Virus genome (UHGV): UHGV-0110022
Direction: 5' to 3' (one strand)
Length of the DNA: 48,769 bases
Origin: a virus
The notes beneath the pieces were generated by a model. The model was not told where the DNA came from. It ran no database searches and was given only the letters and a program-made list of their open reading frames with translations. The position numbers and the translations under genes were made by a program. Positions 3,402 through 12,045 of this stretch are shown piece after piece (within the stretch, counting starts at the first letter, position 1; every line of letters starts with the position of its first letter).

Positions 3402-4028
3402 TTAGAGTTCGTATTGAACTCCTTTGACTACACCAATGATAAGGCAATTACCATTGATAGGGATGTTGGGATACCGAGGATTTAATGGCACTAAAAACTT
3501 TTGAGGGCCATCGATGACTAATTTTTTTACTGTAGCTTCGTTTGTTCCATCAAGTCGAGCGATGACTATTTTTCCATGACGAGGTTCTGCATCTGGATCT
3601 ACAATCACTGTTGCGCCTTCTGGTATTGTTGGGAGGCCATTAGGGTTAGTCATGGAGTCACCTTTAACCTCTAATGCAAATGAGTTATCACCAATCTTTA
3701 ATGATGTATCTACCCACTTGTCCACTTCACTAAACACTTCTGCTGCCCTGCACTCAGTAAACTGCCCAGCCTGAACCCACGATATTACAGGAACTCTGCG
3801 CATGTTTGTGACGAGTTTGCCTTCAAACTCAGCACCATAAAGAATGTAATCTATTGACGTATTGAAGAACTTCGCTAATTTCGAAAGTGCCTCCCCACCA
3901 GGGGTATTGATGTCTTTCTCCCAGTACCCCACAGCAACGTCGCTTACTCCACAAAATTTACCCAATTCTTTCTGGGACGTTCCGGTAACTCTTCTCAGAG
4001 CTTTTATACGCTGACCAACCGTTTCCAT
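3402..4028 (-). CDS. CI-like prophage repressor (HTH-XRE N-terminus plus S24 LexA-like peptidase C-terminus)
   Basis: N-terminal HTH (QKELGKFCGVSDVAVGYWE), C-terminal S24 signature (GDSM...KLV); divergent from a cro-like gene. Confidence 0.85.
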   Translation of the reverse strand: METVGQRIKALRRVTGTSQKELGKFCGVSDVAVGYWEKDINTPGGEALSKLAKFFNTSIDYILYGAEFEGKLVTNMRRVPVISWVQAGQFTECRAAEVFSEVDKWVDTSLKIGDNSFALEVKGDSMTNPNGLPTIPEGATVIVDPDAEPRHGKIVIARLDGTNEATVKKLVIDGPQKFLVPLNPRYPNIPINGNCLIIGVVKGVQYEL

Positions 4029-4046
4029 AGGAGCACCATTTCTTGA

Positions 4047-4115
4047 ATTGCTAAGTAATCTTAGTTTTTATTGACCAAAGATAGATTTGTAATTAGCATC
4101 TAATAAAACTTAGTT
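4047..4115. promoter_or_regulatory. immunity-region operators and PR-like promoter
   Basis: Palindrome CTAAGtaatCTTAG at 4051-4064, second CTTAGTT at 4109-4115, TTGACC(4071-4076)-17 nt-TAGCAT(4094-4099) directed at cro. Confidence 0.45.
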
Positions 4116-4125
4116 TGGAGGGCGT

Positions 4126-4326
4126 ATGACAACTGACGATATCGAAAGCTACTTCGGCAGTATTGAGAAAGTTGCTGCTTTTTTCGGCATAACAACTGAA
4201 GCCGTTTATCAGTGGCGAAACCGTCCGGGCCAGTTAATTCCAAAAGGACGTGCAGCAGAAGCTGCATATAGAACTTGCGGACGGTTGCCATTTAAACCTG
4301 AGCTTTATGAAAAATCTAATGGATAA
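4126..4326 (+). CDS. Cro/YdaS-like small HTH regulator (66 aa)
   Basis: GGAGGG RBS; small HTH protein divergent from the repressor. Confidence 0.6.
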   Translation: MTTDDIESYFGSIEKVAAFFGITTEAVYQWRNRPGQLIPKGRAAEAAYRTCGRLPFKPELYEKSNG

Positions 4327-4915
4327 ATCGATTAACAGAAACCACAGAACGATGAGGCTAACCGTGGGTAAGCATCACTGGAAAGTAGAAAAACAGCCTG
4401 AGTGGTACGTGAAAGCTGTCAGAAAAACTATCGCAGCGTTGCCGGGTGGTTACGCTGAAGCAGCTGACTGGCTGGATGTAACAGAAAACGCATTATTTAA
4501 CCGCCTTCGTGCCGATGGCGATCAGATTTTCCCGCTGGGATGGGCAATGATTTTGCAACGTGCTGGTGGAACTCACTTCATTGCTGACGCTGTGGCGCAG
4601 TCTGCAAATGGCGTCTTTGTGTCTCTTCCTGACGTCGAGGATGTGGACAACGCCGATATTAACCAGCGCCTGCTGGAAGTCATTGAACAGATTGGCAGTT
4701 ATTCCAGACAGATTCGTTCGGCAATCGAAGATGGTGTGGTGGAACCGCATGAGAAGACAGCAATTAACGACGAGCTGTATCTCTCAATTTCGAAGCTGCA
4801 GGAGCATGCAGCACTGGTCTACAAAATCTTTTGCATTTCAGAAAGTAATGACGCCCGCGAGTGTGCAGCTCCGGGCGCCGTGGCGTGTCGTGACTGTGGA
4901 GAAACTAACGCATGA
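4307..4915 (+). CDS. early regulatory protein, CII/YdaT-like (putative)
   Basis: Position immediately after cro; start chosen at internal Met MKNLMDKS (4307), start uncertain. Confidence 0.4.
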
Positions 4916-5090
4916 ACAGTTTAACAACACACTACCGTCGCTCGCAACTGATTGCGCTTCCTGTACCGGGTGGAAAAGCGAAGGTGGAGTATTGCTATGC
5001 AGTTAATGTACCAGGTGACAGGGAAATTGTAACCCACAGCTTTGCTGAGTGGGCTGTGGGTGATTTCAACCGGCAGAAGGAGACAGTCCT

Positions 5091-5270
5091 TTGCGACAAG
5101 TTAACCGCTGGTTCAAAGATCACTACGGAGTGCCCGTCAGAGTCATTCGTTGGGAGCCGGAAACACAACGAGTTATCTACCTCCGCGAAGGCTATGAGCA
5201 TGAGTGCTTCAGCCCGCTCGAACAGTTTCGTCGTAAATTCAGGGAAATAGAGGTCGGTCATGAGCACTAA
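5091..5270 (+). CDS. small hypothetical protein (59 aa, TTG start), not in the ORF track
   Basis: AAGGAG at 5077-5082, 8-nt spacer, TTG at 5091; translation [40 protein letters not shown]... has no internal stop; overlaps the next gene start. Confidence 0.35.
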
Positions 5271-6201
5271 ATTAACCGGCTATGTATGGGATGGTTGCGC
5301 TGCATCAGGCATGAAATTATCCAGCGTGGCAATTATGGCCCGCCTGGCTGATTTCAGTAATGACGAAGGTGTGTGCTGGCCATCAATTGAAACTATTGCC
5401 CGTCAGATTGGCGCGGGGATGAGTACCGTCAGGACGGCTATCGCACGGCTGGAAGCAGAAGGCTGGTTAACGCGTAAGGCGCGTCGCCAGGGTAACCGCA
5501 ATGCGTCGAATGTTTATCAGCTTAACGTTGCGAAGCTTCAGGCAGCGGCATTTTCTCAACTGTCAGATTCTGACCCGTCAAAATCTGACGCATCAAAATC
5601 TGACCCGTCAAAATTTGATGCGTCGAAATCTGGCAAAAAAGCGGGTTTTCACCCGTCAGAATCTGGCGGGGATCCGTCAGTAAAATCAAAACATGATCCG
5701 TCAGATAAAAAACCTTCTCGTCCGGACGCTTCGCAACCGGACACGCAGACGGATGAACAGGATTTTTTAACTCGCCATCCTGATGCGGTTGTATTCAGCC
5801 CTAAAAAGCGCCAGTGGGGAACGCAGGATGATTTGACCTGCGCACAGTGGCTCTGGAAAAAAATCATCGCCCTGTACGAGCAAGCCGCCGAATGTGACGG
5901 CGAGGTGGTTCGTCCCAAAGAACCGAACTGGACAGCCTGGGCAAACGAAATTCGCCTGATGTGTGTGCAGGATGGTCGTACTCACAAACAAATCTGCGAG
6001 ATGTACAGCCGCGTCAGCCGCGATCCGTTCTGGTGCCGTAACGTGCTCAGCCCGTCGAAGTTGCGGGAAAAATGGGATGAGCTTTCCCTGCGCTTATCAC
6101 CGTCCGTCAGCACGTACACCGAAAAACGCGAAGACCCGTACTTCAAATCCAGTTACGACAACGTGGACTACAGCCAGATCCCGGCAGGATTCAGGGGGTG
6201 A
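5260..6201 (+). CDS. replication initiation protein (O-like; N-terminal winged HTH, central repeat linker)
   Basis: N-terminal HTH domain (IARQIGAGMSTVRTAIARLEAEGWL); central pentapeptide repeats encoded by iteron-like DNA repeats. Confidence 0.5.
   Translation: MSTKLTGYVWDGCAASGMKLSSVAIMARLADFSNDEGVCWPSIETIARQIGAGMSTVRTAIARLEAEGWLTRKARRQGNRNASNVYQLNVAKLQAAAFSQLSDSDPSKSDASKSDPSKFDASKSGKKAGFHPSESGGDPSVKSKHDPSDKKPSRPDASQPDTQTDEQDFLTRHPDAVVFSPKKRQWGTQDDLTCAQWLWKKIIALYEQAAECDGEVVRPKEPNWTAWANEIRLMCVQDGRTHKQICEMYSRVSRDPFWCRNVLSPSKLREKWDELSLRLSPSVSTYTEKREDPYFKSSYDNVDYSQIPAGFRG
5563..5710. repeat. iteron-like tandem 15-bp repeats (putative ori) inside the replication gene
   Basis: Five contiguous copies of TCA(A/G)AATCTGAC(C/G)C(G/A) at 5563-5637, further copy at 5656-5670, followed by A-rich stretch. 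Confidence 0.5.
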
Positions 6202-6203
6202 TC

Positions 6204-6692
6204 ATGAGTCTTTTGAATGAAGTTCAGAAATTCATTGAAGCCCATCCGGGATGTACTTCCGGAGACATTGCGGATGCTTTTGCAGGTTACTCACGGCAGC
6301 GCGTTCTGCAGTCAGCAAGCAAGTTACGTCAGAGTGGGCGTGTGGCTCACCGTTGTGAAGGAGATACACGCAGACATTTCCCGCGCCTGACTGAGAGAGC
6401 GCAGGAACCGGAACCACAACCAGTTCGAGAAACCAGACCTGTGCGCAATTTCTATGTCGGCACTAACGATCCACGGGTGATTTTGTACCTGACCCGCCAG
6501 GCTGAAGAACTGGAGTCCAGGGGCTTATACCGTCGTGCTGCAACCGTGTGGATGGCGGCATTCCGTGAAAGCCACTCCCAGCCAGAACGAAACAATTTTC
6601 TGGCGCGTCGTGAGCGGTGCTTACGGAAAAGCAGCAAGCGCGCTGCATCGGGTGAAGAGTGGTATCTGTCAGGGAATTACGTGGGGGCTTAA
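6204..6692 (+). CDS. PerC/ANR-like transcriptional regulator (putative)
   Basis: Motif LESRGLYRRAATVWMAAF resembles PerC-family regulators of enterobacterial prophages; ATG 6204 just after upstream stop. Confidence 0.4.
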   Translation: MSLLNEVQKFIEAHPGCTSGDIADAFAGYSRQRVLQSASKLRQSGRVAHRCEGDTRRHFPRLTERAQEPEPQPVRETRPVRNFYVGTNDPRVILYLTRQAEELESRGLYRRAATVWMAAFRESHSQPERNNFLARRERCLRKSSKRAASGEEWYLSGNYVGA

Positions 6693-7345
6693 TGAGTAAT
6701 AAATATTGCCAGGCGCTGGTGGAACTGCGGAACAAACCAGCCCATGAACTGAAGGAAGTGGGCGATCAGTGGCGCACGCCGGACAACATTTTCTGGGGAA
6801 TTAACACCCTGTTTGGCCCGTTTGTTCTGGATCTGTTTACTGACGGTGATAACGCCAAATGTGCCGCGTATTACACGGCAGAAGATAACGCGCTGGCGCA
6901 TGACTGGTCAGAACGTCTTGCGGAGCTTAAAGGTGCTGCCTTTGGTAATCCCCCATACAGCCGCGCCAGTCAGCATGAGGGGCAATACATCACCGGCATG
7001 CGTTACATCATGAAACATGCCAGTGCCATGCGTGATAAGGGCGGGCGCTATGTTTTCCTGATCAAAGCTGCCACCAGCGAAGTGTGGTGGCCGGAAGAGG
7101 CGGACCATATTGCTTTTATTCGCGGGCGTATTGGTTTTGAACTGCCTGCCTGGTTTATCCCGAAGGATGAGAAGCAGGTGCCGACAGGCGCTTTCTTCGC
7201 TGGTGCTATTGCTGTTTTCGACAAGACCTGGAAGGGACCGGCAATCAGCTACATCGGGCGCGATGAACTTGAGGCATGTGGTGAAGCCTTTCTGGTGCAG
7301 GTTCGCCAGCAGGCGGAAAAACTGGTCAGGGAGATGGCGGCATGA
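6692..7345 (+). CDS. phage DNA N6-adenine methyltransferase (Dam family)
   Basis: NPPY catalytic motif (GNPPYS); TAATG coupling with upstream gene. Confidence 0.7.
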   Translation: MSNKYCQALVELRNKPAHELKEVGDQWRTPDNIFWGINTLFGPFVLDLFTDGDNAKCAAYYTAEDNALAHDWSERLAELKGAAFGNPPYSRASQHEGQYITGMRYIMKHASAMRDKGGRYVFLIKAATSEVWWPEEADHIAFIRGRIGFELPAWFIPKDEKQVPTGAFFAGAIAVFDKTWKGPAISYIGRDELEACGEAFLVQVRQQAEKLVREMAA

Positions 7346-10791: not shown

Positions 10792-12045
10792 ATGATGATA
10801 TTGTTTATGCAGGTTGTTACATGTATGGGCGGAAAAATGGATATCTTTGAGTCGTTTAAAGCAGAGAAGCAGAAAAACCATAAAGTTAATATTTACTATA
10901 CTCCTTCGAAACCAGTTTCTTCACCTTCGAATTTGAGAGGGAGGAATGAAGAAATACAGAAGATTTTAGCAGCATTAACAACCCCTGGTCGCCATTGTAT
11001 GATCTATGGTGATCGTGGTATCGGCAAAAGTTCCCTTGCTCTATCTACTCTTGAGGGAGGAAAAGAGCATGAGATTTTACCAGAAATAGTTTTTCAATAT
11101 CGCTGTATAAAAAATACAACGTTTAAAGACATTATTGAAAAAGCTGCTATTTTTATCGATGAAGCCTATAAACATGATAAAGTTGAAACTACTAAGAAGT
11201 ATGGTGCTAGAGCTCGTTTTTTAGATTTATTCAGCTTGGAAGGCTCTAGGGAAGAAAAAATTACTATTGAAAAAGAAGAGTTGACGGCAAATAAAGCTGC
11301 TTCTGTTTTACATCACCTCGAGTCTGTACTTCTTATTGATGAATTTGATGTTGTCAAAGAAGAAGTAAAGCATGAAGTAGCAGAGTTTGTAAAGCAACTT
11401 AGCGATGCTGGAAGTCCATTTAAAGTTTTGATAGTTGGCATAGGTTCTGATGGTGCAGCTTTAATGGCTGGGCATCAGTCAGTAATACGTTGTATGCATG
11501 AAATAAAGTTGCCGCGTGTTGAAGATAAATATCTATCAGAGATAATCGAAAGCGGTGAAAATGGATTGGGTTTGACTTTTTCGCAGCCAATAAAAAAATC
11601 TATTATCGAGATTAGCAGCGGATTCCCTTATTTTACTCATTTATTATGTAAGGAATGTGCAGAAGAGGCTATCCGCCAGTCAAAAACTATTATTGATAGA
11701 AGTATTTTTGAACAAGCCTTGATCGTTGCAGTGAAAAATACTGAAGGTCAATTAAAACGTTGTTACGATCTCGCCGTAACATCTTCTAGAACCGACATGT
11801 ATCCCAAGATCCTTTTATCTGCGGCAAAATTTAAAAATGAACAATTTAGCGTCAAAAATTGGATAGAGCAAATTGCTGAAGATCATGGCTTAGAGCTTAC
11901 ATATGGAAGTATGAATAATTATACTGGTAAGTTAATAAAAGCTGAGCGAGGAGAAATTCTTCAGTTAGTTAGAAGAGGGGTATATAAAATCACGGATCCA
12001 AGAATGCCAAGTTATATTCTTATGTGCCACAATGCGATCCCTTAA
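10792..12045 (+). CDS. stand-alone AAA+-type P-loop ATPase (cargo gene)
   Basis: Walker A GDRGIGKSS, Walker B LLIDEFD; strongly AT-rich relative to flanks; start uncertain (ATG at 10792, 10825 or 10837). Confidence 0.6.
   Translation: MMILFMQVVTCMGGKMDIFESFKAEKQKNHKVNIYYTPSKPVSSPSNLRGRNEEIQKILAALTTPGRHCMIYGDRGIGKSSLALSTLEGGKEHEILPEIVFQYRCIKNTTFKDIIEKAAIFIDEAYKHDKVETTKKYGARARFLDLFSLEGSREEKITIEKEELTANKAASVLHHLESVLLIDEFDVVKEEVKHEVAEFVKQLSDAGSPFKVLIVGIGSDGAALMAGHQSVIRCMHEIKLPRVEDKYLSEIIESGENGLGLTFSQPIKKSIIEISSGFPYFTHLLCKECAEEAIRQSKTIIDRSIFEQALIVAVKNTEGQLKRCYDLAVTSSRTDMYPKILLSAAKFKNEQFSVKNWIEQIAEDHGLELTYGSMNNYTGKLIKAERGEILQLVRRGVYKITDPRMPSYILMCHNAIP

Follow-up and report, generated by a model that had tools for sequence, protein, structure and literature searches.

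Does the replication gene of the virus genome UHGV-0110022 hold the origin at which its own product acts? In the 48,769-nt stretch of this genome that we analyzed (the window), the gene at 5260-6201 carries short tandem repeats, and a sequence-only reading had taken these for origin iterons and the gene for their initiator, by analogy with lambda gene O. Lambdoid origins are known to consist of iterons within the initiator gene, which differ between phages (PMC8022706, PMC7466680). Our analysis points the same way: 5563-5718 very probably serves an SfII/SfIV/CPS-53-type lambdoid prophage as its replication origin, and would be bound by the prophage's own O-type initiator. Support for this comes from repeat cores that are conserved and covary among homologous genes, that in two cases stand out of frame, and that are inherited together with the initiator's N-terminal domain.

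The repeat array and its initiator gene

The replication gene does contain tandem repeats: between 5563 and 5666 lie six copies of an 11-bp core with the consensus TCA(A/G)A(A/T)T(C/T)TGA, which is palindromic about its central base. What had been described as a uniform 15-bp repeat is a real array, but its conserved unit is the 11-bp core, and the other 4 nt form a variable spacer. Five cores follow one another at 15-bp intervals and the sixth lies 33 bp after the fifth. The five contiguous copies and nearby sixth first reported are therefore correct as positions, except that the fifth copy is degenerate. The units at 5563 (TCAGATTCTGACCCG), 5578 (TCAAAATCTGACGCA), 5593 (TCAAAATCTGACCCG) and 5608 (TCAAAATTTGATGCG) encode the pentapeptides SDSDP, SKSDA, SKSDP and SKFDA, just as had been read from them, and the degenerate unit at 5623 (TCGAAATCTGGCAAA) encodes SKSGK. 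Iteron 1 (5563-5573, TCAGATTCTGA) is a perfect 11-bp palindrome, 13 bp including its flanks (GTCAGATTCTGAC), and iteron 4 (5608-5618, TCAAAATTTGA) is likewise perfect. Iterons 2 (5578-5588) and 3 (5593-5603) share the sequence TCAAAATCTGA, and the degenerate iteron 5 (5623-5633) reads TCGAAATCTGG. The spacer between iterons 5 and 6 (5632-5655, GGCAAAAAAGCGGGTTTTCACCCG) contains A6 and T4 tracts, and its TTT-GAC/CAC-CCG part is kept in homologues, wobble bases included. Iteron 6 (5656-5666, TCAGAATCTGG, encoding SESG) is the best-kept copy across homologues and takes the form CCAGAATCTGG in divergent clades.

Tandem Repeats Finder reports the array at 5569-5632, either as 4.3 copies of period 15 with 81% matches, or as period 30 with 88% matches and a score of 100. 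With up to one mismatch allowed, the motif TCARAWTCTGR has 22 matches in the window versus 6.7 +/- 3.4 in shuffled sequence (none of 100 shuffles reached 22), and all exact core matches of the window fall within 5563-5666. When residues 99-140 were recoded synonymously, with codons drawn from the codon usage of the initiator genes themselves, the mean was 0.43 cores compared with 5 observed, a number that none of 5000 recodings reached. The repetition in the DNA is thus far stronger than the peptide repeat demands. DnaA boxes (TTWTNCACA, up to one mismatch) are not enriched in the window (87 against 92.7 expected), and none lies in 5500-5800. A terminator-like hairpin on the minus strand at 5642-5655 was dropped as a candidate because homologues do not conserve it.

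The gene, on the plus strand, encodes a 313-aa protein of the lambdoid O type with an apparently exchanged N-terminal domain. It matches phrog_391 ('replication initiation O-like') from end to end (E 1e-135). Phages SfII, SfIV, Kati and vB_EcoM-689R6 have replication genes that are 98.6-99.9% identical to it in DNA, and their records variously use the labels 'replication protein O', 'primosomal protein' and 'helix-turn-helix domain-containing protein'. The protein is predicted to begin with a winged-helix domain and to continue through a disordered linker into a C-terminal domain that has a homologue in lambda O. The N-terminal winged helix-turn-helix domain (aa 1-98, 5260-5553), which presumably binds the iterons, matches Pfam HTH_36 at aa 23-70 (E 4e-11). 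The same scan returned GntR, HTH_29 and a weak DnaD_N match for this domain, and found no Phage_rep_O, the lambda O N-terminal type, in the initiator. In an AlphaFold2 model built on 51 sequences, the predicted local distance difference test (pLDDT) score of aa 1-98, averaged over 10-residue blocks, is mostly 70-88; residues 43-50 and 54-66 form helices, and residues 70-74 and 84-88 a beta wing. Beyond this domain, the model is disordered at aa 102-161, confidently helical at aa 162-280, and ends in a disordered tail. The disordered aa 102-161 are encoded by nt 5563-5742, and these nucleotides cover exactly the repeats and the A-rich stretch behind them. Foldseek against PDB matches the N-terminal domain to dimeric MarR/ArsR winged-helix regulators only, and a sequence search of solved structures gave only weak MarR matches, again to the N-terminal domain. 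Dimeric regulators of the MarR/ArsR type bind palindromes.

The C-terminal helical domain (aa 162-280, 5743-6099; block mean pLDDT mostly 87-97) has no Foldseek match in PDB and no family in Pfam or NCBIfam. BLASTP aligns aa 70-277 of the initiator with aa 78-270 of lambda O (30.6% identity, E 7e-26), which indicates that the C-terminal domains are homologous; the alignment spans the wing, linker and C-terminal domain, and not the helix-turn-helix core. The match to phi80 gp15 (36% identity, E 4e-25) is confined to the C-terminal part. The O-like PHROG, the HTH_36 domain, the C-terminal homology to lambda O and phi80 gp15, and the position after cII together argue that the gene was correctly read as an initiator.

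An A-rich tract had also been noted after the repeats, and one is present, although it is only moderate, with 70% A+T over 5679-5718. The A-rich, least stable stretch at 5671-5718, which is the presumed unwinding region, contains two GATC sites (5671-5674 and 5695-5698), each of which precedes a half-site: CCGTCAGTA at 5674, with TCAGTA at 5677, and CCGTCAGAT at 5698, with TCAGAT at 5701. The least stable 40-mer, at 5679-5718, lies at the 95th percentile of instability in the window. Cumulative GC skew was rejected as an indicator of the origin: its minimum, at 4042 in the cI/cro divergence, follows transcription direction and says nothing about the origin.

Conservation and inheritance of the cores

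We collected homologues of the N-terminal domain from phage records and from 80 genomic loci of Enterobacterales, which cover many genera in the families Enterobacteriaceae, Yersiniaceae, Erwiniaceae, Morganellaceae and Pectobacteriaceae. The set came to 81 distinct genes, 77 of which have an SGGDP anchor and were used for codon counts. Peptides of the form S-[KEND]-S-[DE] were picked by protein sequence alone, and codon usage in these same genes served as background. The repeats might have proved to be absent from homologous initiator genes; instead, at least three cores occur in 77 of the 81 distinct genes, and the origin inference survives this comparison.

Codon choice within the cores is close to invariant. 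The first serine codon is TCA in 199 of 207 cases (96%, against a background of 16%) and the second, Ser3, is TCT in 187 of 207 (background 8%). At position 2, lysine is always AAA (128/128, background 62%), glutamate always GAA (29/29, 55%), asparagine always AAT (19/19, 34%) and aspartate always GAT (31/31, 54%), and the residues found there are only K, E, N or D, exactly the set that RAW encodes. The spacer codon, in contrast, uses every wobble base, and the wobble base of the Asp codon varies too. A fixed core beside a free spacer is not what shared ancestry or repeat homogenisation would yield. Cores occur at a density of 18.2 per kb in the linker compared with 0.088 per kb elsewhere in the loci, and the 15-bp core spacing is seen 256 times across loci. 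Two cores stand out of frame, in phiP27 (locus L009, 2881) and in a Citrobacter prophage (L078, 2950), where they encode LQNL or RQNL rather than SES.

The cores also retain their symmetry as they diverge. Positions 4 and 8 are G..C in 158 cases, A..T in 39, A..C in 150 and G..T in 2, so that a T at position 8 goes with an A at position 4 in 39 of 41. Positions 1 and 11 are T..A in 224, C..G in 35, T..G in 46 and C..A in 12, with T..A or C..G preferred at an odds ratio of 14. By these counts, the core positions covary symmetrically about the dyad. Taken with codon choice, this shows that the cores are under nucleotide-level selection and behave as cis-acting DNA sites rather than as a side effect of what they encode. 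Since these sites are translated as well, the DNA would largely set the linker peptide (SDSDP, SKSDA and so on).

Constraint at the nucleotide level continues past the last iteron. In the block 5647-5703, which runs from before iteron 6 through both GATC sites and into the A-rich stretch, 16 of 19 codons have a wobble base that is 92-100% conserved, and in several the wobble base is better conserved than positions 1 and 2. For 50 conserved codons of the N-terminal domain, mean wobble conservation is 0.56 and none reaches 0.95; synonymous sites of that domain are saturated. Both GATC sites and the wobble bases around them are kept across homologues. Shortly downstream lies a phage Dam methyltransferase gene (6659-7345), which is also found in most related loci and is missing from SfIV. 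The conserved GATC pair and the nearby Dam gene suggest control of the origin by methylation or SeqA.

To the right of the A-rich stretch, a mosaic junction zone (5702-5742) separates a module made up of the N-terminal domain plus the origin from the C-terminal module. Similarity to mEp460_4F5 starts at gene position 443, and similarity to phiNP, KpF5 and Flotzy stops at 479-483. Recombination points annotated in lambda lie at the matching relative place. The N-terminal domain and the cores form an inherited unit that is joined to at least three unrelated C-terminal domains: the lambda-O type (the window, KpF5 and P7641), the Phg_2220_C type (phiNP, Flotzy and YeP1) and the type of phiP27. Conversely, where the same C-terminal domain is joined to other N-terminal domains, as in lambda O, phi80 gp15 and mEp460_4F5, other iterons occupy the same place. 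Across these combinations, the iteron sequence changes with the N-terminal domain and not with the C-terminal domain. Within the N-terminal family, the most divergent recognition helices (STVYGAL, STVITLI and STIRGAI) pair with CCAGAATCTGG cores, in places lengthened to CCTCCAGAATCTGGAGG.

Comparing the number of repeats among related prophages had been proposed as a check, and the differences found are in whole 15-bp units, even between E. coli strains. Some Klebsiella and E. coli phages have one, two or three units more, and among E. coli prophages that are 95.6-98.1% identical, EC-16-35 has three more units and Z1323HEC0475 one fewer.

Known origins and alternative explanations

Iterons, A-rich stretch and junction follow one another in the window in the same order as in the annotated origins of lambda and phi80. 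Lambda O likewise lies in the pR operon after cII; the middle of the gene, which codes for the linker, holds dyad-symmetric iterons, and these precede an A-rich stretch and then a recombination junction. In lambda, added iterons make the O protein longer (PMC7466680). The two differ in their N-terminal domains (HTH_36 without a Phage_rep_O match in the window), in their iterons (four annotated in lambda, 18-19 bp long at a spacing of ~20-24 bp, versus six or more in the window with an 11-bp core every 15 bp), and in that lambda has a P gene and no DnaT-like tail, while the window has the reverse. The phi80 record marks four gp15-binding repeats within gene 15; they lie directly ahead of the part for the C-terminal domain and encode the peptide repeat FPKTGKS. 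In phi80 the N-terminal domain is another one, the iterons (TTCCCGAAAACGGGAA) have a 21-bp spacing, and the P-like gp14 is encoded immediately downstream. A module of like construction is that of the 'primosomal protein I' of Escherichia phage mEp460_4F5, whose C-terminal half has 96.8% DNA identity from gene position 443 and which also has no loader gene, but whose N-terminal domain is unrelated and is accompanied at the same place by five repeats of about CATCGGGTCAAAATG at a 23-bp spacing. In a module that is likewise built in this way, orf39 of Shigella phage SfV has a related but divergent N-terminal domain, GTGCAGGAGATTCAC-type repeats at the same place, and a phiP27-type C-terminal domain. 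Iteron plasmids of the pSC101, R6K, F and P1 type likewise place several initiator sites beside an A+T-rich stretch and use a winged-helix initiator, but their iterons are 17-22-bp direct repeats in helical phase outside the gene, whereas those of the window are palindromic, have a 15-bp period and lie inside it. A Pfam scan of the initiator found no Rep_3 domain, and the weak RP-C N-terminal match that it gave (E 0.005) missed the cut-off.

Several smaller points came out of these comparisons. In mEp460_4F5, the A+T-rich stretch after the iterons consists of three 12-nt TACAGAGAATA-type repeats (L090, 1975-2013), a different solution for an unwinding region. To the right of the A+T-rich region of lambda O (L096, 860-895), TCAGAGAATTCTGG (peptide SSENSGESSD) resembles the CAGAATCTG core of the window, and Providencia homologues (L077) have a similar SSSQNSSESSDQ segment after the origin; these resemblances could reflect shared ancestry or coincidence. 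The 'P27' O protein of PMC7466680 was considered as L17 of NC_003356 and ruled out on account of its lambda-type iterons.

If 5563-5718 is the origin, initiation might proceed as follows. Dimers of the winged-helix domain would bind the palindromic cores, the five at 15-bp intervals as well as the sixth 33 bp beyond them, and the bound dimers would assemble a nucleoprotein complex like the lambda O-some. This complex would destabilize the adjoining A-rich, GATC-bearing stretch at 5671-5718, and transcription from a pR-like promoter would cross the region as in lambda. Least certain is the final step, in which the C-terminal domain, the DnaT-like tail, or both might recruit the host DnaB helicase machinery.

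A number of points weigh against the origin reading. Shared ancestry is not corrected for in our codon and covariation statistics, the A+T-rich stretch falls short of that of lambda (70% versus 78% over 40 bp), and a literature search found no published binding or replication data for this module. At 15 bp, the spacing is shorter than the 20-24 bp of lambda, phi80 and mEp460_4F5, which places neighbouring sites on different faces of the helix, and the architecture of the complex is thus not simply transferable from lambda. Finally, no P, gp14 or DnaC-like loader gene follows the initiator in the operon of the window, and helicase loading is thus unexplained.

Two alternatives keep the motifs as functional DNA and give them another role. 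The initiator could bind them for autoregulation or copy control, through roadblock, titration or handcuffing, with the true origin elsewhere in the prophage. Plasmid iterons serve initiation and control alike, the sites lie inside a transcribed gene where bound protein could hinder its own transcription, and the A+T-rich stretch is only moderate; against this, no second core cluster exists in the 48.7-kb window or the 5-kb flanks of the 81 loci (the 0.088 per kb given above), the layout matches that of the annotated lambda and phi80 origins, and nucleotide-level conservation extends to the A-rich stretch. We consider this explanation unlikely. Quite unlikely, too, is that the motifs are bound by some other factor or process, whether the downstream winged-helix/PerC-like protein, a host protein, Dam or SeqA, or a recombination hot spot that makes the junction. 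Such an explanation would make sense of the two conserved GATC sites, which in the window and most related loci have a phage Dam gene a short way downstream, and of the mosaic junction that directly adjoins the block, but changes in the recognition helix track changes in the core, and palindromic sites of 11-13 bp fit a dimeric winged-helix protein.

The remaining alternative is that the array is a low-complexity coding repeat only, a flexible Ser/Asp/Lys linker that has grown by slippage and has no cis-acting function. The array does encode a disordered linker, and its copy number drifts by whole units as slippage would give. Homogenisation of the repeats, however, would also have fixed the spacer, which varies, while the synonymous positions of the core are near-invariant and those of the N-terminal domain saturated. 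Only such amino-acid changes occur as the DNA motif permits, two copies are out of frame, the cores covary symmetrically, and recoding predicts 0.43 cores rather than 5. A purely coding repeat is very improbable, and is essentially excluded by the codon data.

Helicase loading, distribution and genomic context

The initiator of the window ends in a tail, SQIPAGFRG (6172-6198, plus strand), that shares 8 of 9 residues with the C-terminus of E. coli DnaT, SQIPPGFRG; the observation also covers L099 2550-2573 and L097 15796-16335. A BLASTP alignment with K-12 DnaT is limited to these final 9 residues, the C-terminal half has no DnaT domain match in Pfam or NCBIfam, and the search of solved structures returned no DnaT chain. 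The 'primosomal protein I' labels are probably owed to this tail, as the rest of the protein is unlike DnaT. The last 76 nt of the gene behave as a cassette, 96-97% identical in otherwise different initiator genes, and IPxGFRG ends many homologues with unrelated C-terminal domains of at least three types. The tail is found on initiators without a loader gene, such as Stx2a_1447 and SfV orf39, which shares the last 76 nt including GFRG and joins them to its phiP27-type C-terminal domain. In phiP27 itself, where DnaC and DnaB genes come next, L17 has a C-terminal domain of that type and no tail; lambda O and phi80 gp15 also have no tail and are partnered by P and gp14. YeP1-type proteins have neither tail nor loader gene, and the correlation is thus imperfect. 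Reviews of replication restart assign no function to the DnaT C-terminus. It is conceivable, and we put it forward only tentatively, that this is a loader-less form of lambdoid initiation in which IPxGFRG, copied from host DnaT, links the origin complex directly to the PriA/PriB/DnaT to DnaB-DnaC primosome after loss of a P-, gp14- or DnaC-type partner. The absence of a loader together with a DnaT-like tail makes testable how DnaT-type motifs recruit helicase.

The gene is widespread, with a match in 2107 of 5426 complete E. coli genomes as well as in the Shigella serotype-converting phages SfII and SfIV. RefSeq labels it only as a 'helix-turn-helix domain-containing protein' and annotates no origin. 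E. coli K-12 carries a copy in CPS-53 (KpLE1), a pseudogene known as yfdO (L092, 4002-4709) next to yfdN. This copy is 99.3% identical over gene positions 234-501 and keeps the whole iteron array and the A-rich stretch, but its winged-helix domain is deleted, so that it starts at NRNASNVYQ; downstream of it come the same PerC-like gene (yfdN) and a Dam fragment (yfdM). K-12 thus holds orphan iterons without their initiator, and these could be bound by the initiator of a related incoming phage. Rac oriJ was rejected as the K-12 match, the matches being to CPS-53/KpLE1 beside dsdC, torI and yfdN. Contigs labelled Vagococcus, Chryseobacterium, Martelella and Pseudomonas lundensis (L015, L042, L046 and L079) also carry an enterobacterial prophage gene of this kind, at 66-89% protein identity, and are probably contaminated or mis-assigned assemblies.

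A literature search found no paper describing these sites, and a search with the core sequence gave only unrelated papers; the sites are probably previously undescribed. The SfIV genome paper mentions the replication module and no origin. An origin inside a lambdoid initiator gene is known as such; what is particular to this module is the HTH_36 domain, the short palindromic iteron, the unusually tight 15-bp spacing and the lack of a partner loader. A defined origin with its recognition sequence would provide a usable annotation, would account for a linker peptide that varies in sequence and length, and would offer a clear case from nature in which overlapping DNA-binding sites dictate a protein sequence. 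Weigel and Seitz (2006) reportedly classify initiator-only modules in their review of replication modules in phages.

The left end of the window holds the early region of a lambdoid prophage, and the initiator gene belongs to its early rightward operon, with a pR-like promoter upstream of cro. It lies downstream of a cI-like gene (3402-4028, minus strand; Peptidase_S24 and HTH_3), a cro-like gene (4126-4326, plus strand; P22_Cro) and a cII-like gene (4250-4915; Phage_CP76), the same order as in SfIV. The promoter, at 4071-4099 on the plus strand (TTGACC, 17 nt, TAGCAT), comes from a consensus scan only, and a transcript from it would cross the initiator gene and the iterons. Annotations of the small open reading frame (ORF) before the initiator disagree: phage records give a 112-aa ORF at 4912-5250 (phrog_1170), while RefSeq E. 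coli records instead give a DUF4222 protein, the 59-aa TTG-start ORF at 5091-5270, which is in another frame and overlaps the initiator start codon. Downstream of the initiator are genes for PerC-like, Dam, LexA-DNA-binding-like, RusA, KilA-N, DUF968/HNH and Q proteins. The first of these, at 6198-6692, overlaps the initiator stop codon; its product, of the yfdN family, joins a MarR-like winged-helix N-terminus to a PerC-type activator domain. Directly after the Q antiterminator gene, a 417-aa ORF (10792-12045) matches nSTAND1, AAA_22 and AAA_16, which marks a STAND/AAA NTPase, and has a weak PADLOC match to PDC-S59 (E 2e-7); possibly this is a defence gene carried by the prophage.

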